A stretch of 56,918 nt of DNA from Candidatus Pelethomonas sp. (GCA_045615065.1 JAZLEB010000043.1:1-56918); one strand, 5' to 3'. Numbered from the stretch's first letter, positions 22,605 through 56,738 are shown. Notes: generated by a model not told the origin, from the letters alone. Made by a program: numbers and translations.

Positions 22605-22638
22605 CAAAAAACCACCACCGAACAAAATCGGTGGTGGT
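22605..22638 (-). terminator. Rho-independent terminator downstream of the sigma-factor fragment
   Basis: 10-bp stem (accaccaccg / cggtggtggt). The A-run at 22605-22610 is a T-run on the minus strand. It lies 12 nt after the 22650 stop. Confidence 0.7.
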
Positions 22639-22649
22639 TCATCATTTCT

Positions 22650-23141
22650 TTACAGGTTTTTCCGAATAGATTTCAGAGCGTTTTTCTCCAGACGGCTCAC
22701 CTGCGCCTGCGAGATACCCACCTCATTGGACACCTCCATCTGTGTCTTCCCTTCATAAAACCGCAGGGCAAGGATCCTTTGTTCCCGCTCCCCCAGGCGG
22801 TCCATCGCTTCCTTCAGCGCCATACGTTCCAGCCATTGCTCGTCTGTATTCTTATTGTCACGCACCTGATCCATGACACACACCGCGTCGCCGCTGTCGG
22901 AATAGACAGGCTCGAAAAGACTCACAGGATCAACGATCGCGTCCATGGCAAACACCACCTCTTCCCGCGGTATCCCCAACTCCTTTGCGATCTGCTCCAC
23001 GGTAGGCTCCCGCTGATCAATGTTCATCAGCTTTTCCCGCGCCTGCATCACCCGGTAGGCTGTATCCCGCATACTGCGGCTGACGCGAATGGCACTGTTG
23101 TCTCTGAGATAGCGGCGAATCTCACCAACGATCATCGGGAC
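22650..23141 (-). pseudogene. sigG: 3' fragment (regions 2.4-4) of a forespore-type sporulation sigma factor, SigG-like, truncated by the ICE insertion
   Basis: VPMIVGEIRRYLRDNSAIRVSRSMRDTAY...DAIVDPVSLFEPVYSDSGDAVCVMDQVRDNKNTDEQW...GKTQMEVSNEVGISQAQVSRLEKNAL tracks my memory of B. subtilis SigG (VPMIIGEIRRYLRDNNPIRVSRSLRD...DPVSLFEPIYNDGGD...ISQAQVSRLEKAA). The universal FSTYA before VPMI is missing, replaced by ...SFGLRKF. The frame hits TAA about 20 codons upstream, so regions 1.2-2.3 are absent here. Confidence 0.7.
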
Positions 23142-23177
23142 GAATTTCCGAAGTCCAAATGAAAGGACTACAATAAT

Positions 23178-23780
23178 ATGACTCGGAAATTAGCCCTTCA
23201 GGAAGCCATTCAAATCATTGAAAACACAGGGATTGAGCCGCAAAAGAAAGCAGAGATCATCAAGGGGTTACAGCTTTGCGTTGTGGAACTTCCTTTCGCG
23301 CTTTGGTCAGAGAATGCCATCTTTGATGCTTGCGAACAGTTTGTTATGGAGCATGGTCATATCAGACTTTGCGATTTTAACTATGCCGGACTTCCCTCGC
23401 ATCCTACGATCAAGAACCGCTTTGGTATGACCGCCAAAGAGTTTCGGGATAAGTATTTCCCCCTCCCCGATACCCCGGAATTTCAGCCGAAGTATCGCCT
23501 TGAGGATAAGGAACAATGGAACGCACTGTTTATCAGCGAGTTCCATCGTATCCGATGTACCAGTGAACAGCAATACAATGAAAAACGCTCTAAGGATGCT
23601 CCGGTCTGGCAGACGGTGGTTCGCCTTAACGGACTCAAAACATGGAGAGAGCTGTTGGCCGTATTGGAACTGGATACATATAAGCCGGAACGCCCCGTGT
23701 TATCCGTATCAATTCAACTACCGGATGCTATTCCAAGTAAGAAGAAAGACGGCGTCATGTCGTATCATAAGAACAAGTAA
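23178..23780 (+). CDS. Hypothetical protein (first ICE gene)
   Basis: 200-aa ORF with coding-like composition and no motif I recognise. Confidence 0.55.
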   Translation: MTRKLALQEAIQIIENTGIEPQKKAEIIKGLQLCVVELPFALWSENAIFDACEQFVMEHGHIRLCDFNYAGLPSHPTIKNRFGMTAKEFRDKYFPLPDTPEFQPKYRLEDKEQWNALFISEFHRIRCTSEQQYNEKRSKDAPVWQTVVRLNGLKTWRELLAVLELDTYKPERPVLSVSIQLPDAIPSKKKDGVMSYHKNK

Positions 23781-23854
23781 ATAAGGAATCAGGGGCGTTT
23801 CATCCTTTCGTTGAAACGCCCTTTTTTCATACCAAAAAATGGAGGTGATTATAA

Positions 23855-24727
23855 ATGAGCAGTACCGAACAGGAAGTTGTGCAGCAGATCCCGCTGACCG
23901 AGTTGCACCCATTCCCCGACCATCCATTCAAGATTCGGGATGATGAATCGATGCGTGAGACTGCTGAAAGTATCAAGGAGTATGGCGTGCTTGTTCCGGC
24001 GCTTGCGAGACCCCGTAAGAAGGGCGGCTATGAGTTGATTGCAGGACACCGCCGCAAACACGGCTGCGAGCTTGCCGGTCTGGAAACCATGCCCGTCATT
24101 GTCCGTGATATAGACAAGGACACGGCGACGATCATCATGGTAGACAGCAACCTTCAGCGAGAAAATATCCTGCCGTCAGAGCGGGCGCAGGCTTACAAGA
24201 TGAAGCTGGATGCAATCAAACGCCGAGCCGGCAGACCCGCAAAAGGCGAAAAACGAAATTCGCCGAAAATTTCGGCGAATTTCCGAAGCGATGATGAGAT
24301 TGGCACGGACGCAGGAGTCAGTGGCGATACCATACGCAACTACATTTCACTGACCCAGCTTGTTCCGGAACTTCAGCAAATGGTGGACGATAAGAAAATT
24401 GCCCTTACCCCTGCATATCAGCTTTCATCGTTGACACCGGAGGAACAGCAGCTTCTTCTCATTACAATCGACAGCGAACAGGCTACCCCCTCGCTTTCCC
24501 AAGCACAACGCATGAAGAAGCTGAGCCAGGACGGAAAACTGAACGAGGACACCATGTTGGAGATTATGATAGAGCCGAAGAGGACTGAAAAAGAGGATGT
24601 TACCCTCTCCGGAAGTAAACTCCGCAAATACTTTCCGCGCTCTTATACCCCTCTGCAAATAGAAACTACGATCTTCAAACTGCTGGATGCATGGCTGAGA
24701 AAGCGGCAGCGGGATCAGAGCAGATAA
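23855..24727 (+). CDS. ParB/Spo0J-like N-terminal-domain protein
   Basis: IPLTELHPFPDHPFKIRDDESMRETAESIKEYGVLVPALARPRKKGGYELIAGHRRKHGCELAGLETMPVIV is the ParB-box/GxxRxxA region. AGGTGA RBS. Confidence 0.85.
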   Translation: MSSTEQEVVQQIPLTELHPFPDHPFKIRDDESMRETAESIKEYGVLVPALARPRKKGGYELIAGHRRKHGCELAGLETMPVIVRDIDKDTATIIMVDSNLQRENILPSERAQAYKMKLDAIKRRAGRPAKGEKRNSPKISANFRSDDEIGTDAGVSGDTIRNYISLTQLVPELQQMVDDKKIALTPAYQLSSLTPEEQQLLLITIDSEQATPSLSQAQRMKKLSQDGKLNEDTMLEIMIEPKRTEKEDVTLSGSKLRKYFPRSYTPLQIETTIFKLLDAWLRKRQRDQSR

Positions 24728-24797
24728 CCAAATACTACGGGTACCGGACAGAGATTTCTTTGTCCGGATTTTTTATGCCCAAAATCAGGAGGAACCC

Positions 24798-25088
24798 ATG
24801 TATATCAACGGAAACGATGTGTCGAAAACGGGCATTGATTGCAACGGCATCGGTGGTCACAGTGAGCTTGATGTCAAGCGTTACCACAACGACACCCGGC
24901 ACATGATTATCTACGATACCCACAGCAATTCCCCTATGGGGGAACAGTGTGCGCGTCTGCGGCAGTTTCTCACCGAGGAGGAATATGCCGCTGCAAAAGA
25001 GGCCGAACAACTCGGCAATATCAGAATCGCAAAACACGCCGCTATCGTCGAAGGACACATCCTTTGGGACAGAAAGCGGCGTAGATAA
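24798..25088 (+). CDS. Small hypothetical protein
   Basis: 96-aa ORF preceded by a strong AGGAGG RBS (aatcaggaggaacccATG). Confidence 0.5.
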   Translation: MYINGNDVSKTGIDCNGIGGHSELDVKRYHNDTRHMIIYDTHSNSPMGEQCARLRQFLTEEEYAAAKEAEQLGNIRIAKHAAIVEGHILWDRKRRR

Positions 25089-25115
25089 ATAACAAATTGG
25101 AAAGGAATGATGTAT

Positions 25116-25967
25116 ATGGCTGTATTTCGTGTGGAGAGGACACGGGATTATACAGTGATGTGTAATTGCCATTTAAGGGACAGTGATCTGTCTCTCAAAG
25201 CAAAGGGATTGTTGTCCATGATGCTGTCTTTGCCGGAGGAGTGGAACTATACAACCCGAGGTTTGGCGACCATCTGCAAGGAGGGGGTGGACGCCATCGG
25301 TAAAGCACTCAAAGAACTGGAGCTGGCAGGCTATATTGTCCGCCGTCAGCTTCGCGGTAAGGATGGGCGGATCTCCGACACGGAGTACACCATCTTTGAG
25401 CGTCCTCAGACAGAAAAACCGGATACGCCTTCACCGGATACGGAAAAGCCGTATATGGTAAAACCGGATATGGATTCGCCAGATACGGAAAACCACGCGC
25501 AATTAAATAAAGATATATTAAATACTCAAAAATCAAATACTGATCAATCAAATACTCATTCATTCTTTCCTTCGGAAAGTACATACACGCCTGCGGCGGA
25601 GGGACTGACGGACGGAATTTTTGAGAGAGAAGAAATCAGAGATCAGATTGATTACTTTGCCATCAGCAGTCGGTATGACCAAGCACAGCTTGACGAGTTG
25701 GTGGAGATCATGTTGGAAGTTAAGTTGAATCGCAGTCCCACCATCAAAATCGGTCGGGACGCTGAATATCCTACCAACTATGTGCAGCAGCGGTTTGAGC
25801 AGGTCAGCTCCATGCATATCGAAAAGGTCATGGACGGTATCCGGGAGAACACGCCCCGCGTTCGGAATACCAGAGCGTATCTTCTCGCGGCGTTGTTCAA
25901 TTCTGTTTCCACCATCGACAACCACTACGCCATGCTGGTCAATCATGATTTCAAGTGCAGTCCGTAA
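25116..25967 (+). CDS. Winged-helix/HTH protein, putative ICE replication initiator (RepA_N- or DnaD-like N-terminus)
   Basis: MAVFRVERTRDYTVMCNCHLRDSDLSLKAKGLLSMMLSLPEEWNYTTRGLATICKEGVDAIGKALKELELAGYIVRRQL... The central part is low-complexity and encoded by short direct DNA repeats (see finding). Start trimmed to the third ATG. Confidence 0.55.
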   Translation: MAVFRVERTRDYTVMCNCHLRDSDLSLKAKGLLSMMLSLPEEWNYTTRGLATICKEGVDAIGKALKELELAGYIVRRQLRGKDGRISDTEYTIFERPQTEKPDTPSPDTEKPYMVKPDMDSPDTENHAQLNKDILNTQKSNTDQSNTHSFFPSESTYTPAAEGLTDGIFEREEIRDQIDYFAISSRYDQAQLDELVEIMLEVKLNRSPTIKIGRDAEYPTNYVQQRFEQVSSMHIEKVMDGIRENTPRVRNTRAYLLAALFNSVSTIDNHYAMLVNHDFKCSP

Positions 25968-26015
25968 GGGCTGCTTTTTTTGTGCCCGTACACTGGGAGA
26001 AAGGACAACAATGCT

Positions 26016-26360
26016 ATGAAACGACCTCTTGCATACATCACCGCTCCGTGGAGCGACAACGAGTTTGAGAATACCGAGAAAGCGGCTAAGTATTGCCGCG
26101 CGGTCTATGATGCCGGATTCTCTCCCATCTGCCCAATCCTGTTTCTGCCCCTGTTTCTCAGTGATGCTGTTCCGCAGGAGCATAAGGACGGCATCGACAT
26201 GGCGCGGGATTATCTGCGTCGCTCTCATGTGCTAGTCGTTTGCGGTGATACCGTGAATGAAGCCATGAAGAACGACATTGCGGTTGCCGAGCGGCTGCGC
26301 ATTACAGCCACTACGCTCGGCGGCATTCTGACCGTGAAAGGACAGGGCAGAAAACAGTGA
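26016..26360 (+). CDS. Small alpha/beta protein, possibly DUF4406 / nucleoside 2-deoxyribosyltransferase-like
   Basis: MKRPLAYITAPWSDNEFENTEKAAKYCRAVYDAGFSPICPILFLP...VLVVCGD. The family assignment is a weak recollection. Confidence 0.4.
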   Translation: MKRPLAYITAPWSDNEFENTEKAAKYCRAVYDAGFSPICPILFLPLFLSDAVPQEHKDGIDMARDYLRRSHVLVVCGDTVNEAMKNDIAVAERLRITATTLGGILTVKGQGRKQ

Positions 26361-26477
26361 TACATAGAAAACTGCTTCGTCGGCTGGTGGTTCCACCCTA
26401 GCGGAACTGCTGTTGCCCGACCCGACGAACAACAATGACCGCATCTGCGGAGAAAACGAAAACTGGAGGTATGCCTT

Positions 26478-27041
26478 ATGGCTCACTACAACACTAACGA
26501 AAAGAAACCCGATTCCAAAAAGTTCCTCAAGACCGCAGGCGTGGTCATTCTGATTCTGCTCATCACCATCCTTGTTGCACTTTCTCTGCGAGGTTGCTCC
26601 ACGGATGCTGAAGCAAAAGGTGATTCCTTTACCAGCGGTCTGGTCTATGACGACAGCGCAATTGTCGGAGGTTGGATCGAAGCCGATGAAGATGCTATCA
26701 TCGCCGGTCTGAACGAGAAGGTGGAGGAAGGCATGATCAACATCAGCATGAACACCTCTCCTGTTTTTGCGGATGGCACTTCCGAGGGCAATCTGATGAT
26801 CGTCAACGAGGAGATCAACAACTATCCTCAGATCGTTGAGATCACCCGCAACGACACTGGCGAGGTCATCTACAGATCCGGCGGTATCCCCGTGGGCAGC
26901 AAGATTGAAACCGCAAAGCTGGCTGTCGATCTGCCTTCCGGTACTTACGAGTGTACTGCCATGTTCCACAGCGTTGATCCCGAAACCGGTGCATCCCTTG
27001 GCTGCGCCGGTGCGGTTATCACCATCACTATCCAGCAGTAA
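26478..27041 (+). CDS. N-terminally membrane-anchored extracytoplasmic protein, function unknown
   Basis: KKFLKTAGVVILILLITILVALSL is a transmembrane segment followed by a ~140-aa beta-rich domain. GGAGGT RBS. Confidence 0.6.
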   Translation: MAHYNTNEKKPDSKKFLKTAGVVILILLITILVALSLRGCSTDAEAKGDSFTSGLVYDDSAIVGGWIEADEDAIIAGLNEKVEEGMINISMNTSPVFADGTSEGNLMIVNEEINNYPQIVEITRNDTGEVIYRSGGIPVGSKIETAKLAVDLPSGTYECTAMFHSVDPETGASLGCAGAVITITIQQ

Positions 27042-27108
27042 GAAACTGCTATCCAACAACACAACAAATTTCTGAATGCCTTACAAGGCGGAAAAGGAGA
27101 ACTACAAC

Positions 27109-27723
27109 GTGAAGAAGAATTTTAAGAAGATCATGTCCCTCGCATTGGCTCTGGTCATGAGCCTGAGTTTTGCTGTCTGTGCCAGTGCTGCGGAAGTTGA
27201 TTCCAACGGCGGCTCCGGTTCTACCCCCGTCAGCCTGACCACCACCAACGACGGCATCGGCGGTAGTCCCACCACCACGCCCACCAAGATGTCCGTTATC
27301 GTCCCCACCGCTCTGCCTATGGCGATGGCTGACGACGGTACCGTTGTCACTGCCACCGACTGCAAAATCATCAACAACTCCTACGGTGCTGTACGTGTCA
27401 AAAGCGTAACCATCAGTGCGGCAAGAAACTGGAATCTGACTGCCTTCGGTGCCAAGGAGACCCTGGCATCCGCGAAGGTAGACAGTAATCAGCTGGGCTT
27501 CGCCATTCGAATCGGCGGCGGTATGCAGGTGCAGACCACAACGAATAACGCTACCCAGCAGCTCATCAGTGCTCCCATTGCCGGTTGCTACATGACTGGC
27601 GTCGGCGACCTGACCGGTAATACTGTTGCCATTGAGTACGCAGCTATCGTTACCCCCATGTCTTCTGCTGTGTCCAATGCAACGGTTGCCAATATCGTTT
27701 TTGTCATCGAGTGGGATACCTGA
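27109..27723 (+). CDS. Secreted protein, paralog 1 of a shared ~130-aa surface domain
   Basis: GTG start after an AAAGGAGAA RBS. Signal peptide is VKKNFKKIMSLALALVMSLSFAVCASA. The domain ...SVIVPTALP...CKIINNSYGAVRVKSVTISAARNWNLTAF...AKVDSNQLGFAI...IEYAAIV...ANIVFVIEWDT is shared with 27815.. and the C-terminus of 28331.. Confidence 0.6.
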   Translation: MKKNFKKIMSLALALVMSLSFAVCASAAEVDSNGGSGSTPVSLTTTNDGIGGSPTTTPTKMSVIVPTALPMAMADDGTVVTATDCKIINNSYGAVRVKSVTISAARNWNLTAFGAKETLASAKVDSNQLGFAIRIGGGMQVQTTTNNATQQLISAPIAGCYMTGVGDLTGNTVAIEYAAIVTPMSSAVSNATVANIVFVIEWDT

Positions 27724-27814
27724 TCTGACGCAACGAGGATAAACAACACAATACATGAAACGAGGAGGGCGGCTTTTCGGAGCCGCCTTCTTCCTGAAAC
27801 GGAGGAAATATTTC

Positions 27815-28321
27815 ATGAAAGCGAAACGCTTTTCTGCGCTGTTTCTTGCCTTTGCCATGATTCTGGCTTTCGGCACGGTGGCCCTTGCCGCTGATTCAAC
27901 AACGGCATCTGTCCCCGTTACGCTGACTGTCAGCAATGAGTACCGTGCGGTCAATGTTACGGTCCCTGCGTCTCTGCCCGTTGAGGTTATCAACGGCGTG
28001 GTCATCACAGCAGACAATGCAAAGATTACCAACAACGCCAAGAACGGTGCGGTACAAATCACGAACATCTCCGTCACGGATGGTGCGTACAAAGTCGGTG
28101 ATTACGAGAATTTCAGCGGCAGCAAGACGATTGCTCTGAAAATCAACGGATGCCCCACTATTGGCGTGGGTGCTTTGGCACTGAATGATGCCGCGTTCCC
28201 CATCATCAACGCTGGAGAGAGTCAGGCGCTGACATACTTTGCCAAGGTGTCCGGTGATGCACCTAATGCAGAGAATGTGCAGGCTGCAAATGTGATCATT
28301 ACGATTTCCATCGTAGGATAA
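27815..28321 (+). CDS. Secreted protein, paralog 2 of the shared surface domain
   Basis: Signal peptide is MKAKRFSALFLAFAMILAFGTVALA (start trimmed; GGAGGA RBS). The domain is NVTVPASLP...AKITNNAKNGAVQITNISVT...LTYFAKV...ANVIITISIVG. Confidence 0.6.
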   Translation: MKAKRFSALFLAFAMILAFGTVALAADSTTASVPVTLTVSNEYRAVNVTVPASLPVEVINGVVITADNAKITNNAKNGAVQITNISVTDGAYKVGDYENFSGSKTIALKINGCPTIGVGALALNDAAFPIINAGESQALTYFAKVSGDAPNAENVQAANVIITISIVG

Positions 28322-28330
28322 GGAGGGCCA

Positions 28331-30655
28331 ATGAAAAAGAAAAACAGTTTTACCCAGCGTGTTCTCTCCCTGCTGTTGGTATTCCTGATGGTGGTGACGC
28401 TGTTCCCAACCTCGGCATGTGCAGCAGAAAGCTGCACGGGTGACGGACACATGGAGTCGGTATATGAGATCGGCAATGATACAGAAATCGTGGAGATTGC
28501 GACCAGCGGCACAGTTGGCGAAAGTGAGGTCTATTGGGCATTTGATGCGGAAACCGGTCGGCTGACGATCAGCGGCAACGGTGGCTGTGATACCTTTACC
28601 AGCGTGGACGATCAGCCCTGGGCACATCTGCGAGCCGAAATTCGTGAGGTGTGGTTCGATGGTATGGATAAACTGTCAATCGAGAGTCTGGCATACTGGT
28701 TTGACGGTTGCACGGCATTGACAACCGCTGAGATTCCCTACACCACTCCCTTGATTGGCGAGAACGCATTTGCAGATTGTGACGCACTGGAAGGCTTGAT
28801 GCTCTACTACGATGGCGAGGGATTCACCATTACTCCGGGTGCATTCGCTACCGATGATTGGAGCGCTCTTGAGGTTGCGTTTATTGCATTCTCGGAAAGC
28901 ACCATGCAAACGATCTATACATTCGATTGGGCAAGCGAGAATCGCTTTACGCGATTTGTAGATGTATACGGACTTGTCCATCTTGAAACAGGATACTGCC
29001 CTTACTGTAAGGACACTTATAGCTATACGCTCGAGTATGAGTACTGGTCGGAATTCAGTCATACATTGCGTTTCTGGTGTTCCAACTGTGGACAGGATCA
29101 AAGTATGGGGTTCAGTAACGAAAACCATACTTTCAGTAACAGCGGAACCTGTACGCTGTGCCAATATTACGACGAATCAAAAGATAACACGATTTGCGAA
29201 CACGATTCTACCAGCACCACATGGTCGGGATGCGATTGGTCCGAATATTGTGACAACTGTGATGAGTTGATCGATTACGGCACAACCCACGGCACCTATA
29301 CCTACGGCGATTGGGAATACTACACGACCTCTCAGCATCGTCGTACCTATACCTGTGACGACTGTGGAGAGGGCTCCTATTCCTACGGTTACCACTCCAC
29401 GACTACAGAATACAGTAAATACAGCGCTACCCAGCATACCGAGGGATCTTACTGCTCTGGCTGCGAAAGCTACATTGGCTCCACTACCAAGGTAAGCCAC
29501 AGTTTTACCTATGGTTCCTGGGCTTCCTATGACGATTCTCAGCATCGCAGGACAAAGACCTGTTCCGACTGCGGGTACAGCACCTATGAGTACGCAGATC
29601 ATTCTCTGACCTACGGTAGCTATACTTCCTACAATACCACCCAGCATCGCAGAAAGGTGTCCTGCTCCTGCGGCTACTTTACCTACGAGTATGTAAACCA
29701 CACGATTACCACCGGCTCTTGGATCAGTGCTTCGGATACCCAGCACTCTCGTACCAAGTCTTGTTCTGTGTGCAGTTACAGCACCACGGAAACAAAATCC
29801 CATTCCATCACTAATGGAACTTGGACAAATATATCAGCGACACAACACCAGCGCACCAACAAGTGCTCTTCCTGTAATTACAGCAAGACGGAGAAAGCCT
29901 CCCATACGATCTCCAGTACTGCATGGACGAGCATTTCTTCTACACAACACCAGAGAACAAATTCCTGTGCTACCTGTTCGTACAGCGCCACCGAGAAAAC
30001 AAGCCACAGCATCAGCAGCACAGCGTGGAAGAGCATATCAGATACGCAGCACTCCAGAACCAATAGCTGCTCCTGTGGTTACTCTGCCGTCGAGGTGGTT
30101 TCCCATACCATCACACATTCCGCTTGGGTCAGCATTTCAGCGAAGCAACATCAGCGTACCAATAGTTGTTCTTGCGGATATTCCGTGAAGGAGACTGTTG
30201 CCCATGCAGACGGTAACGCAGATGATTGCTGCGATAGCTGTAATTATCTGATGACCAGGTTCTCCGTTACCGTTCCTGCCAATCTCAGTCTGATGATGGC
30301 ATCTAACGGTGAGATTAGCTCTGCTACCACGGCAGCGATCATCAACAACTCCACTGATGCTGTAGAGGTGACAGCTATTACCATCACTGCCGCAGGCGAT
30401 TGGACGCTGGTTCCGTTCAACCACAATATGGCGGCAGCAAAGGTAGACTCCAAGCTCATCGGCTTCTCTATCAACGGTGCTGTGACAGCGAGAACCGGCA
30501 GGAGCGAGCAGTTGTCTCTTCCCGGTGACTGGACGATTGCCAAGGGCGCATCCCTGCCTCTGACCTATGATGCGGTGGCGTCCGCAACCTCTGTGGCGAT
30601 CAATAACGAACAGGTGCTGACACTGGTGTTCGTGATTGATTGGGTGGACAGATGA
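28331..30655 (+). CDS. 774-aa secreted surface protein: BspA-type leucine-rich-repeat region, Cys-rich region, nine H..W..QH.RT..C.(1-2)C.Y repeats and the shared C-terminal surface domain
   Basis: Signal peptide is MKKKNSFTQRVLSLLLVFLMVVTLFPTSACA. LRR_5-like segment is EVWFDGMDKLSIESLAYWFDGCTALTTAEIPYTTPLIGENAFADCDALEGLML. The repeats are listed in the findings. The C-terminus is RFSVTVPANL...AIINNSTDAVEVTAITITAAGDWTLVPF...AKVDSKLIGFSI...LTYDAVA...LTLVFVIDWVDR. There is no LPXTG motif. Confidence 0.75.
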   Translation: MKKKNSFTQRVLSLLLVFLMVVTLFPTSACAAESCTGDGHMESVYEIGNDTEIVEIATSGTVGESEVYWAFDAETGRLTISGNGGCDTFTSVDDQPWAHLRAEIREVWFDGMDKLSIESLAYWFDGCTALTTAEIPYTTPLIGENAFADCDALEGLMLYYDGEGFTITPGAFATDDWSALEVAFIAFSESTMQTIYTFDWASENRFTRFVDVYGLVHLETGYCPYCKDTYSYTLEYEYWSEFSHTLRFWCSNCGQDQSMGFSNENHTFSNSGTCTLCQYYDESKDNTICEHDSTSTTWSGCDWSEYCDNCDELIDYGTTHGTYTYGDWEYYTTSQHRRTYTCDDCGEGSYSYGYHSTTTEYSKYSATQHTEGSYCSGCESYIGSTTKVSHSFTYGSWASYDDSQHRRTKTCSDCGYSTYEYADHSLTYGSYTSYNTTQHRRKVSCSCGYFTYEYVNHTITTGSWISASDTQHSRTKSCSVCSYSTTETKSHSITNGTWTNISATQHQRTNKCSSCNYSKTEKASHTISSTAWTSISSTQHQRTNSCATCSYSATEKTSHSISSTAWKSISDTQHSRTNSCSCGYSAVEVVSHTITHSAWVSISAKQHQRTNSCSCGYSVKETVAHADGNADDCCDSCNYLMTRFSVTVPANLSLMMASNGEISSATTAAIINNSTDAVEVTAITITAAGDWTLVPFNHNMAAAKVDSKLIGFSINGAVTARTGRSEQLSLPGDWTIAKGASLPLTYDAVASATSVAINNEQVLTLVFVIDWVDR
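29288..30247 (+). repeat. Nine-plus tandem ~33-34-codon repeats (His2-Cys2 pattern) within the surface protein gene
   Basis: Example units: HSFTYGSWASYDDSQHRRTKTCSDCGYSTYEYAD, HTITTGSWISASDTQHSRTKSCSVCSYSTTETKS, HSITNGTWTNISATQHQRTNKCSSCNYSKTEKAS, HTISSTAWTSISSTQHQRTNSCATCSYSATEKTS, HTITHSAWVSISAKQHQRTNSCSCGYSVKETVA. Confidence 0.8.
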
Positions 30656-30689
30656 TCTGTCCGCCTAACCCGGAAGGGGGTGACACATC

Positions 30690-31154
30690 ATGCAGGAGGA
30701 AGTGGAGAGCAAAGTTGCTGTCCTGATCGTTAATACGGGTAAGCTCACCGAGCAGGAGCTTCACAAAGCGCTGGCGGCAATGCTACGGGAACTGAAGGGT
30801 AAAATGGACGATGCGAAACACCCCCACGGAAAAATGACAGTGAAACAACTTGCCGCACAGAATCACGGAATGCAGAGTATCGAGGTGTCGGATAAAAACA
30901 TCGGCTCGTTCAATCGGATCGCGCGAAAATACGGCATCGACTTTGCTCCATTTAAGGTCAAGGGCGAGAATAAGTATCTGATCTTTTTCAAAGCACCGGA
31001 TAAGGATGCGATGACAGCAGCGTTCAAGGAGTACACCGCCAAGCAGATCGGAAAATCGCAGCGCCCCTCCGTACTGCAAAAGCTTCAGCATTTCAAATCC
31101 CTCATCAAAACAGCAGTGGTGGATCGAACGAAAAAGAAGGAGTGGGAGCGATGA
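30690..31154 (+). CDS. PcfB-family (DUF3801) conjugation accessory protein
   Basis: Its position immediately upstream of, and overlapping, the coupling-protein gene, plus ...MTVKQLAAQNHGMQSIEVSDKNIGSFNRIARKYGIDFAPFKVKGENKYLIFFKAPDKDAMTAAF, is typical of PcfB. Confidence 0.65.
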   Translation: MQEEVESKVAVLIVNTGKLTEQELHKALAAMLRELKGKMDDAKHPHGKMTVKQLAAQNHGMQSIEVSDKNIGSFNRIARKYGIDFAPFKVKGENKYLIFFKAPDKDAMTAAFKEYTAKQIGKSQRPSVLQKLQHFKSLIKTAVVDRTKKKEWER

Positions 31155-32200
31155 AGCGTACAAACTTCAAAAAGCTCCTGCTCCTCAATTCACCCTATCT
31201 GCTTTTTGTTTACATGGGAATGAAACTGAGTGAAGCTGTGCGGCTCACACCGGGGATGGACTTTTCTGAAAAGTTTCTGTATCTCCCGGACGGATTTTCT
31301 GCAGCGTTTTCTTCTGCACTTCCAAGTGTTCATCCGGCAGACCTCTGTGTAGGCATTGCCTGTGCGTTGCTTGTTCGCTTGGTAGTTTATGTCAAGGGAA
31401 AAAACGCCAAGAAGTTTCGCAAAAACAAAGAGTACGGTAGTGCCAGATGGGGCAGTCCGGAGGACATCGCACCATACATGGATGCTGATTTTTCCAATAA
31501 CATCATCCTCACGCAGACGGAACAGCTGACCATGAACAACCGTCCGAAAGATCCGCTTACATCACGCAATAAGAATGTGCTTGTGATCGGAGGAAGTGGT
31601 TCCGGTAAAACCCATTTCTGGCTCAAGCCTAATCTGCTCCAATGTACATCTGAGCAGTACCCCGTCAGCTTTGTGGTCATAGATCCCAAAGGCTCCGTTG
31701 TGATAGAGTGCGGAAACGCACTCCTAAAACACGGATATCGGCTGAAAATCCTCAACACCATCAATTTCAAAAAGTCCATGCACTACAATCCCTTTGCCTA
31801 CATCCATAGCGAAAAGGATATTTTGAAGCTGGTTACCTGCTTAATTGCCAATACCAAGGGCGAAGGAAAAGCCGGTGATGATTTCTGGGTGAAGGCAGAA
31901 ACGCTGCTTTACACGGCACTTATCGGCTATATTCACTATGAAGCACCGGTGGAGGAACAGAATTTTTCCACGCTGATCGAGTTCATCAATGCTATGGAGG
32001 TTCGAGAAGACGATGAGGAGTTCAAGAACAGCGTAGATCTCATGTTTGAGGAACTGGAAAAAGAAAAGCCCAATCACTTTGCAGTACGTCAATATGCCAA
32101 ATATAAATTAGCCGCGGGAGTTGTATGCTTTAAGAGACTTCTTAATCACACGATTAGGAAGTCCCTTAAAACATATAACGAAGGAAGGAGATACACTTGA
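31151..32200 (+). pseudogene. VirD4/TraG-type type IV coupling protein, N-terminal fragment (interrupted after codon 322; 27 foreign codons, then stop)
   Basis: Two N-terminal transmembrane segments. Walker A is NVLVIGGSGSGKTHFWLKPNL. Homology ends at ...AVRQYAKYKLAAG (GGA at 32117-32119), after which the frame reads element sequence VVCFKRLLNHTIRKSLKTYNEGRRYT*. Confidence 0.85.
32132..32148. repeat. Left terminal inverted repeat of the nested element
   Basis: AAGAGACTTCTTAATCA. It matches the reverse complement of 42185-42200 (AAGGACTTTTTAATCA) at 15 positions with one gap. Confidence 0.6.
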
Positions 32201-34086
32201 GCAAGAAACAAATCACTGCTCTTTACGAGCGTCTAAGCCGTGATGACGACTTGGAGGGCGAATCCAACAGTATATCCAATCAAAAGAAGCAGTTGGAAGA
32301 TTATGCCCGTCAGCATGGTTTTCCCAACCCTGTCCACTTCACGGACGATGGTATCAGCGGCACTTGCTTTGATCGCCCCGGCTTTCTGGCAATGATGAGA
32401 GAAGTTGAAGCCGGGAATGTCGAGTATTTGTGCATCAAGGACATGAGCCGTCTGGGGCGTGATTATCTGAAGGTCGGTCAGATCATGGAGATCCTCCGAC
32501 AGAAAGGTGTCCGTCTTATTGCCATCAACGATGGTGTGGACAGTGCCAGAGGGGACGATGACTTCACTCCCTTCCGCAACATCATGAACGAGTATTACGC
32601 CAGAGACACAAGCCGTAAAATTCGTTCCACTTTCCAATCCAAAGGCAAGACGGGCAAGCACCTCACAGGCTTAGTCATTTATGGCTACCTCTGGAACGAG
32701 AAGCGAGACCAGTGGCTCATAGATGAAGAAGCCGCAGCAGTGGTAAAACGCATCTTCTCCATGACGATTGATGGATTGGGACCATATCAGATTGCCCAGA
32801 AGCTGACAGACGAACAGGTTCTCATTCCGGCTGCTCACCTTGCCCAGCATGGTGAGGGAGTGAACAAGAGCAAATCCTTCAAGAATATCTACGGATGGGG
32901 TTCATCTACCATCGTCAACATCCTGCAAAAGCGTGAGTATCTGGGTCACACCATCAACTTCAAGACACGAAAACACTTCAAGGACAAGAAAAGCCATTAT
33001 GTCCCAGAGGATGAATGGACGATTTTTGAGAATACCCACGAACCAATCATTGACCAAGAGACATTTGATCTGGTTCAAAAAGTCCGCAGCAATGTGAGGC
33101 GGTATCCAAACGGTTGGGGCGAGACAGCACCTCTGACGGGATTGCTTTTCTGCGCCGATTGTGGTGGCAAGATGTATGTCCATCGGACAAACAACGGCAA
33201 GCGGATTTCTCAATACACTTGTTCCCAGTACAGCAAAATCCCTGTAGGTGAACTTTGTTCCACCCAACATCGTATCAACGAGGATGTTGTTCTGGAGTTG
33301 ATCTCCGACCTCTTGAAGGCGATTGCCGACTACGCCAAACACGATAGAGCGGACTTTATTCGCGTCGTACAGCAAGCGCAGGACAATCAGCAGTCCTACG
33401 AAGTCAAACGGCAAAAGACCCGTCTTGCAGCCGCGAAAAACAGGAAGGATGAGCTGGAAACGCTCCTCTGCAAGATTTACGAGGACAATATCTTGGGCAA
33501 GCTGTCAGATGACAGATATACCACTCTGGATGCTAAATATGCCAAGGAACAATCTGACCTTGCAGAGGAGATTGCTGCCATTGAAAACAGTCTCGCGTCA
33601 TACGAGAAAAACAAGAAGTCCGCAGAACGCTTTATCTCTCTGATCGAGAAATATGAGAACTTCGATCATCTGTCCATTGCAATGCTCAATGAACTTGTTG
33701 ACAAGATTCTTGTTCACGAGCGTGACCGCAAAGGCAGCAAACAGACCACACAGGAGATCGAGGTGTTCTTCAACTTTGTTGGGCGGTTTGTCCCTCCCTC
33801 TTTTGGCGAGGAGCTTACGCCGGAGGAAATGGAAGCGATCCGCAAGCGTGAAGCACGAAAGGACAGGCTGCATCAAAACTACTTGAAGCGAAAAGCAAGC
33901 GGCAAGCAAAAAGAGTATGAAGAACGGATACGAGCCAAGAAAAAAGCGGAGCTTGACGTAAAGAAAGATGCTCTCCGGGCAGAGGATATTGCCCATGGCG
34001 TATTTGTTCCGGTGAGCAATCTTCCTGTGCTTGAGCCGAGAAAGAATACGGATCATCCAATTCATACATCTACCCAGTACGCATAA
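32197..34086 (+). CDS. Large serine recombinase (TnpX/TndX class)
   Basis: TTG start after a GAAGGAAGGAGA RBS. The resolvase catalytic domain is ALYERLSRDDDLEGESNSISNQK...LCIKDMSRLGRDY...IAINDGVDS. It continues with a recombinase domain, a zinc ribbon (CADCGGKMYV...YTCSQY) and a long coiled-coil C-terminus. Confidence 0.9.
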   Translation: MSKKQITALYERLSRDDDLEGESNSISNQKKQLEDYARQHGFPNPVHFTDDGISGTCFDRPGFLAMMREVEAGNVEYLCIKDMSRLGRDYLKVGQIMEILRQKGVRLIAINDGVDSARGDDDFTPFRNIMNEYYARDTSRKIRSTFQSKGKTGKHLTGLVIYGYLWNEKRDQWLIDEEAAAVVKRIFSMTIDGLGPYQIAQKLTDEQVLIPAAHLAQHGEGVNKSKSFKNIYGWGSSTIVNILQKREYLGHTINFKTRKHFKDKKSHYVPEDEWTIFENTHEPIIDQETFDLVQKVRSNVRRYPNGWGETAPLTGLLFCADCGGKMYVHRTNNGKRISQYTCSQYSKIPVGELCSTQHRINEDVVLELISDLLKAIADYAKHDRADFIRVVQQAQDNQQSYEVKRQKTRLAAAKNRKDELETLLCKIYEDNILGKLSDDRYTTLDAKYAKEQSDLAEEIAAIENSLASYEKNKKSAERFISLIEKYENFDHLSIAMLNELVDKILVHERDRKGSKQTTQEIEVFFNFVGRFVPPSFGEELTPEEMEAIRKREARKDRLHQNYLKRKASGKQKEYEERIRAKKKAELDVKKDALRAEDIAHGVFVPVSNLPVLEPRKNTDHPIHTSTQYA

Positions 34087-34103
34087 ATAGGAGGTTGCCA
34101 GTT

Positions 34104-34391
34104 ATGATCTTAGATGCACTTTATGAAGGACAGGTCTATCCTGCGGAAACCGTGATTCCACAATGCAAGGAGTTCCGTGAAGCAGAAAGGCAGATATCTA
34201 ACCTCTTGAATCTCTTGGAACAGCGTTTAGAGAAAGACGACTGTGATAGGCTTGAAAACCTCAAGGAGCTGTTCTTCGATAATCATCGTCTTGACTGTAA
34301 GGAGAATTTCAAACACGGCTTTGCGATGGGGGTTCTGCTGATGAAGGAAGTGTATGAACTGTCCTCTGGATATACCAGAGAAACACCATAA
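34104..34391 (+). CDS. Small hypothetical protein (MGE-associated)
   Basis: AGGAGG RBS 9 nt upstream of ATG 34104. The 95-aa helical protein begins MILDALYEGQVYPAETVIPQCKEFREAERQ... Confidence 0.5.
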   Translation: MILDALYEGQVYPAETVIPQCKEFREAERQISNLLNLLEQRLEKDDCDRLENLKELFFDNHRLDCKENFKHGFAMGVLLMKEVYELSSGYTRETP

Positions 34392-34485
34392 GATGTGCAG
34401 CAAAAAGCGGCAGAGATTTGTCAGGATCTCTGCTGCTTTTGCTTTTTATGCTACAAAAAATGAACTACCTAACTGGAGGAGCAAC

Positions 34486-34776
34486 ATGGAAAAACTGACG
34501 AAGTACGAGAAGGAAACGATCATCCTTTTCAATGAAGGCGAGGACACGGCGAGTATCTACACCTACAATGCCGGACTACGAAAGCGGCTTGCAGCATTCA
34601 GTAAGCAGTATCCAGATCACTGTCGTCTGGAACAGTCACACGAGCAAGGCGGGGTGTCTTATGTTCTTGATAAGTCCCGACTGTCCGTCCGTCTGCAACC
34701 GCCGTACAGCGAGGAGCGCAGGCAAAAAGCCAGCGAGAACGCCAAGAAAAACGGTTTCAGCAGTCAATCGGAATAA
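34486..34776 (+). CDS. Small hypothetical protein (MGE-associated)
   Basis: Start trimmed to MEKLTKYEKETIILFNEGEDTASIYTYNAGLRKRL (CTGGAGGAG RBS). 96 aa. Confidence 0.5.
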   Translation: MEKLTKYEKETIILFNEGEDTASIYTYNAGLRKRLAAFSKQYPDHCRLEQSHEQGGVSYVLDKSRLSVRLQPPYSEERRQKASENAKKNGFSSQSE

Positions 34777-35109
34777 TGTGGCGTTTGGAGCTGGCATGCG
34801 GTCAAAATGTCAGAACTGCATCCGATGTTTGGACCGCAGTATTGCATAGAGTATCAACTATGTCAGTTATGAAAAACACAGTTTCTGCAACCTATATTTC
34901 AAATTCAGTCATTTCCATTAGGTTGAAGAGTTTGTACTTTTATGGTAAAATATGATCCGAAATATGAATTTGCAGAGTTCGACAAACTTGAATTTGTCTA
35001 ACAGAGCAGGGACAAAAATTCCTGCTCTTTATTAAACTATTTTGTTATATTTTCCCGTAGAAGTTGTGTATATAGGTGAAAAGGTAATTTTGAAAGTGAG
35101 GTGAAGCAA

Positions 35110-35670
35110 ATGGATGATGCAAAAATCGTGCAGATGTATTTTGACAGAGATGAGCAGGCTATTCCAGCAACCGCAGACAAGTATGGTAACTACTGTACTT
35201 CTATTGCAAACAATATCTTAGGCAATCACGAAGATGCAGAAGAATGTGTCAATGATACATATCTAAACACCTGGAATTCCATCCCACCCCATAGGCCTAA
35301 AATGCTATCTACATTCCTGGGCAAGATTGTTCGCAATCTGGCATTTAACAGATACAAACGCAACACCGCAGATAAACGGGGAGGTGGTGAAATAACGGCG
35401 GTACTTGACGAATTGGCAAACTGCGTATCTGGAAATGATGATGTTGAGCAAGCCTATGAATACAAAGAACTGACTGCAGGCATCAATGACTTTTTAGCTA
35501 CTCTGCCAGCAGAGAAGCGGAATATCTTTGTATGCCGATACTGGTACACAGATAGCATTGCCGACATTGCCGCTCGGTTTGATATGACCTATTCTGCCGT
35601 GTCCATGATGCTGAACCGACTAAGAACCAAATTACACAACTATCTAATAGAACGGGGGTATGAACTATGA
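35110..35670 (+). CDS. Sigma-70-family (ECF-like) RNA polymerase sigma factor
   Basis: Region 2 is AIPATADKYGNYCTSIANNILGNHEDAEECVNDTYLNTWNSIPP. Region 4 is LPAEKRNIFVCRYWYTDSIADIAARFDMTYSAVSMMLNRLRTKL. Confidence 0.85.
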   Translation: MDDAKIVQMYFDRDEQAIPATADKYGNYCTSIANNILGNHEDAEECVNDTYLNTWNSIPPHRPKMLSTFLGKIVRNLAFNRYKRNTADKRGGGEITAVLDELANCVSGNDDVEQAYEYKELTAGINDFLATLPAEKRNIFVCRYWYTDSIADIAARFDMTYSAVSMMLNRLRTKLHNYLIERGYEL

Positions 35671-36338
35671 AAAAAGAAAATCTTTATGAAGCCATTGGCG
35701 AAATTAACGAAGACTATATCAATGAAGCTCATAAGACCGTAAAAAAGAAATCCCGCCCTGTTTGGGTAAAATGGGTGTCTATGGCAGCCTGTCTATCCCT
35801 CATAGTAATGCTCGGGATTTTCGGCAACCTGTTTCGTTTGCTCGACACACCCGACATCTCCGATAACAGCATCTTATCGTATTTTGTAATCACTGCACAA
35901 GCAGCGAATGGGGAACCAACGGAATTGAACTTTACCAGTAGTTGTATTAATTCGGGAAAATCAAACTGCAATCTTTTTGGACATGATAGGCCACTGTTTC
36001 ATTTTGATGTTAAGCCATCAGAACTCGAAAACAATGAAGCTGTATACCAACGATTTGATATATCTATCTCCTACGACGGAACTACTGTTACTGTTGCGGA
36101 TGAACACATCTCAGTAGCTTATCTCGCTTCTGCTCACTCTTCCCAAACGTATGGGTACTCAATCTTTGGTTGGTTTACAGAACCAACAGATGTTATTGTA
36201 ACAATTACCGATAAAGAAAGCCGTGAAATCGTGGAAATGTTAACGGTAAACGTAAAATATATGGCAGATACGCAAGAGTATGAACTTGAATTGACTAACT
36301 TAACCACAAAGTTCTCTGAGCTATCTACGGCTGATTAA
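35667..36338 (+). CDS. Putative anti-sigma factor (single-pass membrane protein)
   Basis: Its start overlaps the sigma gene's stop (ATGA). It has a short cytoplasmic N-terminus (MKKENLYEAIGEINEDYINEAHK), one transmembrane segment (WVSMAACLSLIVMLGIFG) and a ~150-aa external domain. Confidence 0.55.
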   Translation: MKKENLYEAIGEINEDYINEAHKTVKKKSRPVWVKWVSMAACLSLIVMLGIFGNLFRLLDTPDISDNSILSYFVITAQAANGEPTELNFTSSCINSGKSNCNLFGHDRPLFHFDVKPSELENNEAVYQRFDISISYDGTTVTVADEHISVAYLASAHSSQTYGYSIFGWFTEPTDVIVTITDKESREIVEMLTVNVKYMADTQEYELELTNLTTKFSELSTAD

Positions 36339-36343
36339 GCTGA

Positions 36344-36375
36344 CCAATTCCAATTTGACAAAGGAGTGTGAGATT
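36344..36375 (+). repeat. Junction motif copy A (CCAATTCCAATTTGACAAAGGAGTGTGAGATT)
   Basis: It lies immediately between the anti-sigma stop and ATG 36376. Confidence 0.8.
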
Positions 36376-36624
36376 ATGAAGCAATTACACAAGTTTCTCA
36401 AGATATTCATTTTTTTGCAATTAGGCTCTTGTTGTGGTCGTGTGCTTCAAAGGTATCTTGATTTCGTAAATCATCCCGAAATATATGCCTATTACTCTGC
36501 TCCTTGGTATACAGGAATTACCATCACAGTTATTCTTACGGCAATAACTGTTTTGATTACAACGATTGCCTATTTTGTGGTTGGACACTTAATCAAGAAG
36601 AGAGAGCAAAATAAGACAGAATAA
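36376..36624 (+). CDS. 82-aa two-transmembrane-segment membrane protein
   Basis: MKQLHKFLKIFIFLQLGSCC...TGITITVILTAITVLITTIAYFVVGHLI. The TTG-extended form in the ORF track (MTKECEIM...) merely reads through the conserved motif. Confidence 0.55.
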   Translation: MKQLHKFLKIFIFLQLGSCCGRVLQRYLDFVNHPEIYAYYSAPWYTGITITVILTAITVLITTIAYFVVGHLIKKREQNKTE

Positions 36625-36656
36625 CCAATTCCAATTTGACAAAGGAGTGTGATTGT
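36625..36656 (+). repeat. Junction motif copy B (CCAATTCCAATTTGACAAAGGAGTGTGATTGT)
   Basis: It starts 1 nt after the preceding TAA and ends at ATG 36657. Confidence 0.8.
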
Positions 36657-36956
36657 ATGAAAAGATTGATGGCTGTTGCTCTTGTAATGGCTCTGCTCCT
36701 TAGTTTGGTTGCTTGTAGTGGTAAGACTATCGGCAAAATAAGTGGTGCTGAAAATGAATATATCACCATTGATGATGTGAAATATGGCTTAGACGCAGAT
36801 AACGATTTCAGTCAAGCAGACAAAGGAACTTATTTAGGGAAAGTATCAAACGCTAAAATCACGATGAAAGTCTATTCTGTCAAAGGTGATGCCGAAGCAG
36901 AATATATCTATGCTGTTTGGGATTGGGAGGGTGCTTTCTACAAGAAAGAGCAATAA
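36657..36956 (+). CDS. 99-aa lipoprotein
   Basis: MKRLMAVALVMALLLSLVAC lipobox. Confidence 0.6.
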   Translation: MKRLMAVALVMALLLSLVACSGKTIGKISGAENEYITIDDVKYGLDADNDFSQADKGTYLGKVSNAKITMKVYSVKGDAEAEYIYAVWDWEGAFYKKEQ

Positions 36957-36957
36957 A

Positions 36958-36989
36958 CAAATTCCAATTTGACAAAGGAGTGTGATTGT
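36958..36989 (+). repeat. Junction motif copy C (CAAATTCCAATTTGACAAAGGAGTGTGATTGT)
   Basis: It lies directly after the preceding TAA and ends at ATG 36990. It is identical to copy B over 30 nt. Confidence 0.8.
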
Positions 36990-37334
36990 ATGAAAAAGTT
37001 GATAGCATTAGTTTTGGCATTAGTTTGTGTGCTTGGCTTGGTTGCTTGTGGTGCAAAGGAGCAGACAACACCTAACACACCCAATGCAACGATACCTTCG
37101 ATTATGTATGAGGGCAATCTATACAAGACAACAGGCAAACAAATCCCAGCAGAGGTTGATGAAACTGCTATTGTAGGAAACATAAGTTCAGTTGTTCCGT
37201 TATCTCAGTTTCCTACTAATGACGGCGAAGCAAACTTTGGTCAAGTGGGTGACCCGTACGCACTCACAGCAGATGGCTTAGTGGTATTGCTCAATAACGA
37301 ATGGACTTTGTTTGAGCTGTTGGAAGTAGAATAA
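36990..37334 (+). CDS. 114-aa lipoprotein
   Basis: MKKLIALVLALVCVLGLVAC lipobox. The mature part is unrelated to the 99-aa lipoprotein by eye. Confidence 0.6.
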   Translation: MKKLIALVLALVCVLGLVACGAKEQTTPNTPNATIPSIMYEGNLYKTTGKQIPAEVDETAIVGNISSVVPLSQFPTNDGEANFGQVGDPYALTADGLVVLLNNEWTLFELLEVE

Positions 37335-37343
37335 TCTATTAAG

Positions 37344-37361
37344 CCAATTCCAATTGGTCGG
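37344..37361 (+). repeat. Junction motif copy D, closing variant (CCAATTCCAATTGGTCGG)
   Basis: The first 11 nt match copies A-C. It then diverges to TGGTCGG instead of TTGAC-RBS. Confidence 0.65.
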
Positions 37362-37479
37362 GCAGATACGGCGTTCGACCTGCTTTTAGAATACTTCATA
37401 ATGACTAAAACAAAGGCGATCAACTCTATGTGGTTGGTCGCTTTTGCTTTGCCCATTATTGTGAAAGGAGCTGACCCGG

Positions 37480-37797
37480 ATGACAAACGAAAAACTTGAA
37501 AAGCTGAAGCACGACAAGTATGTTGCGAAAAAGAAGTTGACCGCAGCCAAACACAGAGAGAAACAGATAGAAAGTGAGCTGAAGCGGCTGACCAGAAGCG
37601 AGCGTACGCACCGCCTTTGTACTCGTGCCGGAATGTTGGAAGCGTTCTTGCGAGAACCAACCCTGCTGACTGACGATGATGTAATGGAGCTGCTGACCTT
37701 CATATTCCAGAGTAAAGCGGTTCACGAGAAGCTGAATATGCTGATCGAGAACCGAAAAGAAACGGCGACAACGGGAGCTGATGAGCCCTTAGCGTAA
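37480..37797 (+). CDS. DUF3847-like coiled-coil protein (usually the partner of MobA/MobL relaxases)
   Basis: MTNEKLEKLKHDKYVAKKKLTAAKHREKQIESELKRLTRSERTHRLCTRAGMLEAFL... Confidence 0.65.
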   Translation: MTNEKLEKLKHDKYVAKKKLTAAKHREKQIESELKRLTRSERTHRLCTRAGMLEAFLREPTLLTDDDVMELLTFIFQSKAVHEKLNMLIENRKETATTGADEPLA

Positions 37798-37947
37798 GAT
37801 AAGGGCGCAACTATACACCGCCCAAGGCGGTGCGTTGCGTTCTGCCGAAAGCCCCTTGCAGGGAGCAGATGATTTCCGCTGATCCGCTTCAATCATCCAG
37901 GGGAATGAATTCCCCTGCGCTGGCGTTGCCAGCTACCCCTTTGTAGA

Positions 37948-37990
37948 CTCGCTACCTGAAAACGATTATAAATTGTTTTCAGGTAGCGAG
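37948..37990. repeat. Perfect 16-bp inverted repeat with an 11-nt loop (terminator or oriT-associated hairpin)
   Basis: ctcgctacctgaaaac at 37948-37963 and gttttcaggtagcgag at 37975-37990. The trailing T-run is weak (ttctc). Confidence 0.5.
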
Positions 37991-56736: not shown

Positions 56737-56738
56737 TT

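Follow-up and report, generated by a model that had tools for sequence, protein, structure and literature searches.

We found that the DNA analysed here, a 56,918-nucleotide metagenomic contig from Candidatus Pelethomonas sp. taken at its full length (hereafter the window), holds one junction of a Tn1549/CTn-like ICE that a large serine recombinase, judging by the junction and by sister insertions, has inserted into the chromosomal sigG gene. The recombinase gene and the first 96 sigG codons must, by analogy with sister insertions, lie beyond the right end of the contig. We interpret the insertion as a recent, precise, tolerated and in principle reversible (there are no excision data) knock-out of sigma-G rather than as a developmental switch, and would give this interpretation a probability of about 0.6. 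The window being the whole contig, its own distal junction, its recombinase and the rest of the genome are outside our data, and a second intact sigG in the same genome cannot be excluded.

The interrupted gene is represented in the window by a minus-strand ORF of 161 aa that corresponds to SigG residues 97-256 (Table 1). The NCBIfam SigG equivalog TIGR02850 matches it over model positions 94-253/254 with an E-value of 5.7e-78, the SigF model being far weaker (1e-53); in bit scores SigG (261.9) ranks first, ahead of SigF (182.4), SigB and others. Its whole-protein scores of 261.9 and 261.4 remain below the cut-offs of TIGR02850 (457) and NF006071 (372), respectively, because regions 1.2-2.3 are absent. 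Pfam recovers Sigma70_r3 and Sigma70_r4 and no Sigma70_r2, and tblastn with B. subtilis SigG and SigF found no SigG region 1.2-2.3 part anywhere in the 56.9-kb window. The fragment is 64% identical to residues 96-258 of B. subtilis SigG. Upstream of Met97 its frame reads ...*FPSHIIVVLSFGLRKF-VP-MIVGE, that is FGLRKF-VP where intact orthologues have RFSTYG-VP-MIVGE, and an in-frame stop stands 18 codons ahead of Met97. No promoter-like site was found upstream of the fragment. The initial annotation had read the ORF in the same way, as SigG regions 2.4-4 (here TIGR02850 94-253 and Pfam r3/r4) lacking region 1.2-2.3, with the FSTY(A/G) before VPMI replaced, the frame closing about 20 codons upstream, and the ICE gene array, whose first plus-strand gene starts at 23178, beginning where the frame ends; all of this is borne out.

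The fragment bears no mark of decay at conserved positions. Two intact proteins, the closest orthologue P0002 (256 aa) and P0003, are each 97% identical to it across its length, and P0002 clears the NF006071 SigG cut-off (433.6 vs 372) while its SigF score stays under the cut-off. At the 106 columns that are at least 97% conserved among intact relatives the window fragment has no change, and split and full-length proteins both average 0.29 changes per protein at these columns. In two truncated proteins the match to the C-terminus of an intact one is even perfect (100%), and split alleles compared with each other show few non-synonymous differences (pN 0.06-0.09) and synonymous sites near saturation (pS 0.65-0.83). 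By sequence, this lack of decay fits a recent insertion, and also continued use of the gene.

Concerning the junction, an alignment of the intact locus L007, the window, the 5'-half contigs L008/L009, L001 and L172/L178 identified a core, GTCCCGATGA, common to attB, to the window junction and to the 5'-half junctions. The attB of L007 reads ...ACATACGGG / GTCCCGATGA / TCGTTGGTGAG, the window GGACTTCGGAAATTC / GTCCCGATGA / TCGTTGGTGAG, and L008/L009 TACGGT / GTCCCGATGA / CTTTCCGATGTCC. Host-derived sequence extends to 23141, so that the Val95 and Pro96 codons are also of host origin, a refinement of the initial annotation. The arms that flank the core, GGACTTCGGAAA and TTTCCGATGTCC, form an imperfect inverted repeat, and the element-side arm is nearly identical in L172 and L001. 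In the reconstructed attP, GGACTTCGGAAATTCGTC-CC-GATGACTTTCCGATGTCC, the symmetry centre is the CC of the Pro96 codon, the same position as in L121, L124 and L127, whose attP sites are intact; by analogy with characterised serine integrases, cleavage is inferred at this CC, between regions 2.3 and 2.4. In silico, attB (L007-like) is ...TACGG(G/T)GTCCCGATGATCGT... and attP is GGACTTCGGAAATTCGTCCCGATGACTTTCCGATGTCC.

Empty sites place the boundary at the same core. L007, the locus of P0002, can be aligned with 842 bp of the window at 88.6% identity, beginning exactly at 23141 and passing the stop codon into the downstream flank; it is the sole empty site available for the window itself. In a related species L178, with an intact sigG, is an empty site: its match to the occupied alleles L172-L174 sets in precisely at the core, at 98.8-99.2% identity, and the presence of the ICE is hence polymorphic within that species. 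In the comparison of attB with an uninterrupted sigG, proposed in the initial annotation, both L007 and L178 break exactly at the core.

We considered whether the fragment is not a split host gene at all, being instead sigF/sigG-like cargo of the element, the remnant of an old paralogue or an assembly chimera. Phages of spore-formers do encode sigF/sigG homologues (PMC13492144), and the window is indeed a metagenomic contig, yet the fragment is cut at the element boundary and not inside the element, L007 remains homologous beyond the stop codon into the host flank, and the breakpoint has a canonical att structure and is found again in assemblies that are independent of each other and represent different samples and species. 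We find this alternative hardly credible, and rejected decayed paralogue, cargo and chimera on host-flank homology, att structure and recurrence of the breakpoint. The insertion is in a true sigG, as had been claimed: of the cases that were to refute it, that of a decayed paralogue is contradicted by the identity of P0002 (97%), the L007 alignment and the 0/106 changes.

Table 1. Features of the window and of the related contigs discussed in the text.
Feature	Contig	Position	Strand	Basis or remark
Terminator hairpin just past sigG stop codon	window	22610..22639	-	seen in sequence
sigG 3' fragment ORF, Met97-stop, regions 2.4, 3 and 4	window	22650..23135	-	TIGR02850, Pfam, P0002/P0003 identity
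10-bp core GTCCCGATGA, codons 95-98 (Val95-Pro96-Met97), last host-derived sequence	window	23132..23141	-	junction alignment
Inferred crossover dinucleotide CC in Pro96 codon	window	23137..23138	-	attP symmetry centre
Element-side att arm GGACTTCGGAAATTC	window	23142..23156	-	imperfect inverted repeat of arm after 5' halves (TTTCCGATGTCC)
ICE body, runs off contig right end	window	23142..56918	+	gene content; order repeated beside sigG in L170, L172
Gene X, 200 aa, terminal element gene, 37 bp from core	window	23178..23780	+	
ParB	window	23855-24727	+	
DUF6017	window	25107-25967	+	
DUF7768	window	25980-26360	+	
DUF3801	window	30690-31154	+	
T4CP (type IV coupling protein), in two pieces	window	31142-32119 and 42218-43036	+	
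Nested element, ~10.1 kb, in ICE coupling-protein gene	window	32120..42217	+	own recombinase and relaxase
Nested DUF4368-type serine recombinase	window	32197-34086	+	
Nested MobA/MobL relaxase	window	39706-41304	+	
TrbL_2	window	43377-44279	+	
VirB4-like, 954 aa	window	44598-47462	+	
NlpC/P60	window	47459-49180	+	
CD1107-like	window	49423-50304	+	
Topoisomerase	window	50483-52535	+	
ArdC/YodL	window	53611-55893	+	
X coupled to sigG 5' half	L180	1805-2736		opposite-orientation insertion
Small ORF	L095	11777-11926		
Small ORF	L001	8304-8474		
Small ORF	L121, L123	upstream of recombinase		
sigG 5' stub	L090	10001-10517		
sigG 5' stub	L175	10001-10900		
sigG 5' stub	L177	1879-2700		

The ICE, whose left end adjoins the core, accounts for more than 33.8 kb of the window, and all genes to the right of 23142 are on the plus strand. 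As the right end of the contig falls within the ICE, the integrase of the ICE is not in the window. A coupling protein, a VirB6-like protein, a cell-wall hydrolase and a CD1107-like protein are all present, an M28 peptidase gene lies between those for the topoisomerase and ArdC/YodL, and the gene set is one which we take to be that of the Tn1549/CTn-type ICEs of Clostridia. The adjacent element had already been called an ICE, and on the strength of ParB, DUF6017, DUF3801, T4CP, TrbL_2, NlpC/P60, CD1107-like, topoisomerase and ArdC/YodL we agree. The P-loop match of the VirB4-like protein stays under the cut-off (23.5 vs 25.8); the same protein has a sub-threshold match to an intein splicing domain at residues 581-613 (34.8 vs 35.8 bits), just before the P-loop region. 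The coupling-protein gene is divided by the nested mobilisable element, and its rejoined halves give a single Pfam match (profile positions 45-442, 187 bits). Apart from its recombinase and its relaxase, the only relaxase seen in the window, the nested element encodes an ECF sigma factor, a Fer4_16 protein, a glyoxalase and a CHC2 zinc-finger protein; the GC content drops to 0.39-0.46 across 34-39 kb, in the region of this element. The topoisomerase gene is in two overlapping frames, 50483-51217 and 51045-52535, either through a frameshift or through an assembly error. With its coupling-protein gene split and its topoisomerase gene in two frames, the copy of the ICE in the window looks crippled. 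An exact-protein look-up of the ICE genes at 23178-23780 and 56134-56736 returned no match. The left flank (1-22649) consists of ordinary chromosomal genes, among them two-component systems, an ABC transporter and a MATE pump; no sporulation gene other than the sigG fragment occurs in the window, so the flank is uninformative on the sporulation capacity of the host.

Two further species (L170/L171 and L172-L174), in which the downstream neighbours of sigG differ, have the same left end of the ICE beside their sigG 3' half, with the orientation unchanged. Between the window and L170 the ICE DNA is 94.4% identical and the sigG DNA 80.1%, which indicates that the element moved between hosts after these had diverged, i.e. 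that it spread horizontally. The other end can be seen in L008 and L009, where the sigG 5' half is followed by the C-terminus of a convergent serine recombinase. Since L008 was recovered from the same metagenome as L171, and L009 from the same metagenome as L170, and each pair consists of complementary halves, they look like the two ends of one insertion in each case. The distal end that the initial annotation had predicted, with a recombinase and the sigG 5' half, is present in these relatives, that of the window itself being off the contig; its further expectation, that sigG would most likely lie downstream of spoIIGA-sigE, was not met, the upstream neighbours in relatives being hutD-like and other genes.

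Splitting at this codon is frequent. The best 120 matches to the 3' fragment include 17 distinct proteins of exactly 161 aa and 95 of full length (at least 253 aa), meaning that about 15% (17/112) of these close SigG relatives are split at the Pro96 codon; among the best 120 matches to the 5' part, ~95 diverge directly after G-V-P, with many different tails and hence many arm classes. Both figures come from similarity-ranked lists and are rough. A scan of genome contigs with SigG retrieved full-length genes only, with no split genes and no second copies, its best match being 86% identical (Oscillospiraceae/Oscillibacter MAGs). The arm plus core gave 25 matches in metagenome contigs, all of them by chance and none beside sigG, the same pattern had no match in viral contigs, and SigG rejoined in silico (P0121 + P0010) is absent from the protein collection. 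The Pro96 codon is a site at which mobile DNA widely inserts in gut Oscillospiraceae, one that is apparently undescribed, and we infer that a near-invariant coding sequence would offer a recombinase a reliable site across many hosts. The high split frequency (17/112 and ~95/120) counts against a plain knock-out.

The site is also used by prophage-like and other elements that have related recombinases. The island in L001 is a different one, with a peptidase C2, an acetyltransferase and a response regulator, and its 475-aa serine recombinase lies 37 bp from the sigG 3' half, on the upstream side. In L095, the complete 470-aa recombinase of a prophage-like element with a tape-measure gene adjoins the sigG 5' half, and an intact spoIIIA operon lies 10 kb from the split gene. 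A gene with Resolvase, Recombinase and Zn-ribbon domains occupies the equivalent junction in L123, the same being true of L001 and L095 and, partially, of L008. The recombinase of L001 shares 51% identity with that of L095 and only 23% with the nested recombinase of the window. The nearest cultured-phage integrases, those of phiFC1/EFC-1 and BL3, are 36-37% identical over their full length, and no deposited phage has an integrase more than 45% identical to the sigG-targeting recombinases. Further relatives are found in IMG/VR, where most contigs of one family have an intact attP, CAACAC(C/T)AT-GCCG-ATGGTGTTG, and two contigs of the same family are integrated copies in which the arm is joined to ...GCCGATGATCGTGGGGGAGATCCGGCGCTATCTGCGGGAC, the sigG 3' half; a PHROG scan of the genes around the IMG/VR recombinase (L127) did not confirm a phage nature. 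Intact palindromic attP sites around the same core are present in L121, L124, L125 and L127-L143. The central dinucleotide is CC in L121 and GG in L124 and L125, which explains why elements are found in both orientations. Apart from one isolated motif match, a search for sporulation-type promoters upstream of the examined recombinase genes returned sigma-A-like promoters only.

In every element lineage examined, the gene directly across attP from the recombinase is a homologue of X, the terminal gene of the window ICE; identity is 38% in L121 and 35% in L124, and in L125-L143 the homologue is a 363-aa protein with two repeats. A further X homologue is annotated in a cultured strain, Oscillibacter sp. 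GMB15532. X has no Pfam match and no PHROG match, and its AlphaFold model, all-helical and confident (pLDDT 83.5), found nothing better than E = 0.85 in PDB and BFVD with Foldseek. We regard X as a candidate accessory or directionality factor, no more than that, with its function unassigned. In several lineages a small ORF of 45-60 aa (M-x-V-S-x-x-I-N-G...) is located directly upstream of the sigG-targeting recombinase; it has no PHROG match and is a second candidate accessory gene.

Insertions of the opposite orientation have X on the strand of sigG, directly behind the 5' half. The stop of the 5' half and the start of X overlap as ATGA in L180-L184, and in five protein clusters (P0264, P0267, P0270, P0274, P0277) X continues the reading frame of SigG residues 1-96 by way of a linker that the arm encodes, predicting sigma-region-2-X fusion proteins of 288-292 aa. 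These fusions could be incidental, a 13-codon stop-free linker having a probability of ~0.5. About 60 nt upstream of the sigG start, 9/11 related loci, intact and split ones both included, carry the motif G[CT]AT[AG]-N15-GGnnAnAnT, which fits the sigma-F consensus and would be expected by chance in ~0.0015 per sequence by our own estimate; the window, without a sigG 5' end, could not contribute. The motif supports forespore expression of sigG, as in model organisms, and its conservation implies that X, where it lies behind the 5' half, would be driven by a sigma-F-type promoter. In the orientation found in the window, X and all ICE genes are directed away from the promoter of sigG, and nothing couples sigG transcription to element genes.

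This difference in orientation bears directly on an alternative that we think unlikely but cannot exclude, a programmed excision as with skin or SP-beta but in the germ-line compartment, the forespore, whereby sporulation would trigger the recombinase and sigG would be rebuilt, the circle then being lost from the spore or being kept in the non-dividing forespore and re-integrating at germination. X directly behind the sigG 5' half (as an ATGA overlap or a fusion) under a sigma-F-type promoter is what such a programme might look like, but the window's X and ICE genes face away from that promoter, and the in-frame fusions may mean nothing. Likewise, a recombinase-attP-X module carried by ICE, prophage-like and other elements speaks for it, whereas the examined recombinase genes have ordinary sigma-A-like promoters, and X, lacking any Pfam, PHROG or fold match, has no assigned function. 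The split is widespread with both halves intact, occupied and empty alleles coexist within a species, and L095 keeps its spoIIIA operon intact beside the split sigG; against these stand the absence of expression or excision data and the defective look of the window ICE.

A related proposal, for us no more than a doubtful conjecture, is that sigG-targeting elements are a germ-line counterpart of skin with a portable recombinase-attP-X module, the first transcription of sigG in the forespore triggering excision and so rebuilding the gene. One orientation would place X, sometimes as a fusion with SigG 1-96, under the sigma-F-dependent sigG promoter; the excised circle would remain confined to the non-dividing spore and could re-integrate; the window ICE would be a 'locked' member in the opposite orientation; and the constrained 5' stubs of distant hosts described below could be remnants or variants of the same programme. 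The dichotomy stated in the initial annotation, by which the element either abolishes sporulation or is lost from spores, is not exhaustive, because an excised circle would not be diluted in a non-dividing forespore and could re-integrate.

We favour the knock-out because the element's genes point away from the sigG promoter and the element looks damaged. While it is integrated, we infer that no sigma-G would be made: the 5' third of sigG would still be transcribed from the sigma-F-type promoter, its translation would enter the element arm and stop, and the 3' part would be without a promoter of its own. The lineage would as a consequence be blocked after engulfment and form no mature spores, unless the recombinase excised the element precisely and restored sigG. 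In C. difficile, where sigma-G is forespore-specific, sigG mutants do not form heat-resistant spores (PMC3738446).

A third group of loci retains the 5' half only. In L090-L094 and L175-L177 a sigG stub of 99-100 aa ends at the same codon; after it come a short arm, a promoter and tRNA-Arg(CCT), and next chromosomal genes. In the L090-L094 clade there is no sigG 3' half within 10 kb of the stub. This clade is very abundant, the stub fragment P0183 being found on 255 contigs. Two stub hosts are very distant from each other, their birA, bioY and M20 peptidase genes being 46-55% identical (pN 0.31-0.35), and between the same two hosts the stub is 86% identical (pN 0.094), far more constrained than its neighbours. 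Two strains that are 99.5% identical differ in a base cluster exactly at the stub junction. No intact-sigG locus from GTDB was found to share the birA-bioY synteny of the stub clade. The tRNA-Arg beside the stub is itself an insertion site, with tandem partial tRNA copies and a different element in L093 (10480-11100) and, in L175 (10871-16592), a Tn916-like element that encodes a tyrosine integrase and a Tet(M)-like GTPase.

The constraint on the stub is not accounted for by a plain knock-out, and the constrained distant stubs, together with the undecayed split fragments, count against such a model. That the L090-L094 clade keeps a 5' stub only would agree with a neutral insertion in an already asporogenous lineage, where sigG was dispensable and merely provided the element with a still-conserved sequence, and sporulation genes are known to have been lost over short evolutionary distances in Oscillospiraceae (bioRxiv 10.1101/2022.02.25.481979). 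This explanation appears improbable to us given a window fragment unchanged at all 106 conserved positions, the low pN relative to pS of split alleles and the existence of near-identical intact alleles; the window has no other sporulation gene to inspect in this respect.

Intervening elements have been described in sigK, spsM, spoVFB, spoVR and gerE, all of them mother-cell genes (PMC4191935, PMC5595907). A survey of 180 Firmicutes genomes reported split sigK in 15 genomes and sigG in every spore-former, without mention of a split sigG (bioRxiv 10.1101/2022.02.25.481979). We found no publication on an element in sigG, and 'undescribed' is provisional, most subscription journals being outside the literature searched. 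Within that literature, which has intervening elements in mother-cell genes only, the initial judgement that the insertion site is unusual is supported.

A recurrent and precise interruption of a forespore sigma factor breaks this mother-cell-only rule, excision in the mother cell being harmless to inheritance. It could mean that spore formation, which underlies host-to-host transmission and survival of ethanol or antibiotics, is routinely shut down by mobile elements in gut commensals that are abundant; or else that DNA is rearranged in the very cell that becomes the next generation. Surveys that infer sporulation potential from gene presence will mis-call genomes with a split sigG, and the sigG-targeting recombinase family, with its 40-bp site, constitutes a new set of site-specific integrases. 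With defined att sites, examples of both orientations and a candidate accessory gene, both readings are open to experiment.

Compared with the described skin, SP-beta and gin cases, the element in sigG stands apart by interrupting a forespore gene, which in relatives has a sigma-F-type promoter. It resembles skin in sigK (SpoIVCA in B. subtilis, skinCd in C. difficile) as a large serine recombinase element inside a sporulation sigma-factor gene, with precise junctions, a short shared core and unrelated cargo around a conserved recombination unit. However, sigK acts in the terminal mother cell and leaves the germ line untouched, whereas sigG acts in the forespore; skin is a defective prophage and the sigG element an ICE; and excision at sporulation has been shown experimentally for skin, with nothing shown for the sigG element. 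With SP-beta in spsM (SprA/SprB) and the portable 'site-specific recombination units' (PMC4191935; PMC6957869) it has in common an integrase/att unit shared between phage-like and conjugative elements, a sporulation gene as target and symmetric attP arms, while target gene and compartment differ; the directionality factor of SP-beta is known (SprB, with a mother-cell promoter), and the sigG elements have only the candidate X, unlike any described family. The gin element in gerE of B. cereus ATCC 10987 (PMC5595907) is likewise a non-phage serine recombinase element that splits a small sporulation regulator gene, but gerE is a mother-cell gene, gin is not conjugative and its rearrangement has been shown experimentally.

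Among conjugative elements, the Tn1549/CTn-type ICEs have the same gene set as the window ICE, which differs in targeting sigG, in the integrase (seen in relatives), a serine recombinase of 470-475 aa from another clade, and in the element nested in the T4CP gene of the window copy. The phages with the closest cultured-phage integrases, phiFC1/EFC-1 and BL3, have different attachment sites besides their low identity (36-37%). Finally, the comK prophage of Listeria ('active lysogeny') is also located in a developmental regulator gene, from which it excises without lysis and into which it can re-integrate (PMC13492144); the host process is a different one, and for the sigG element such reversibility is only a hypothesis.
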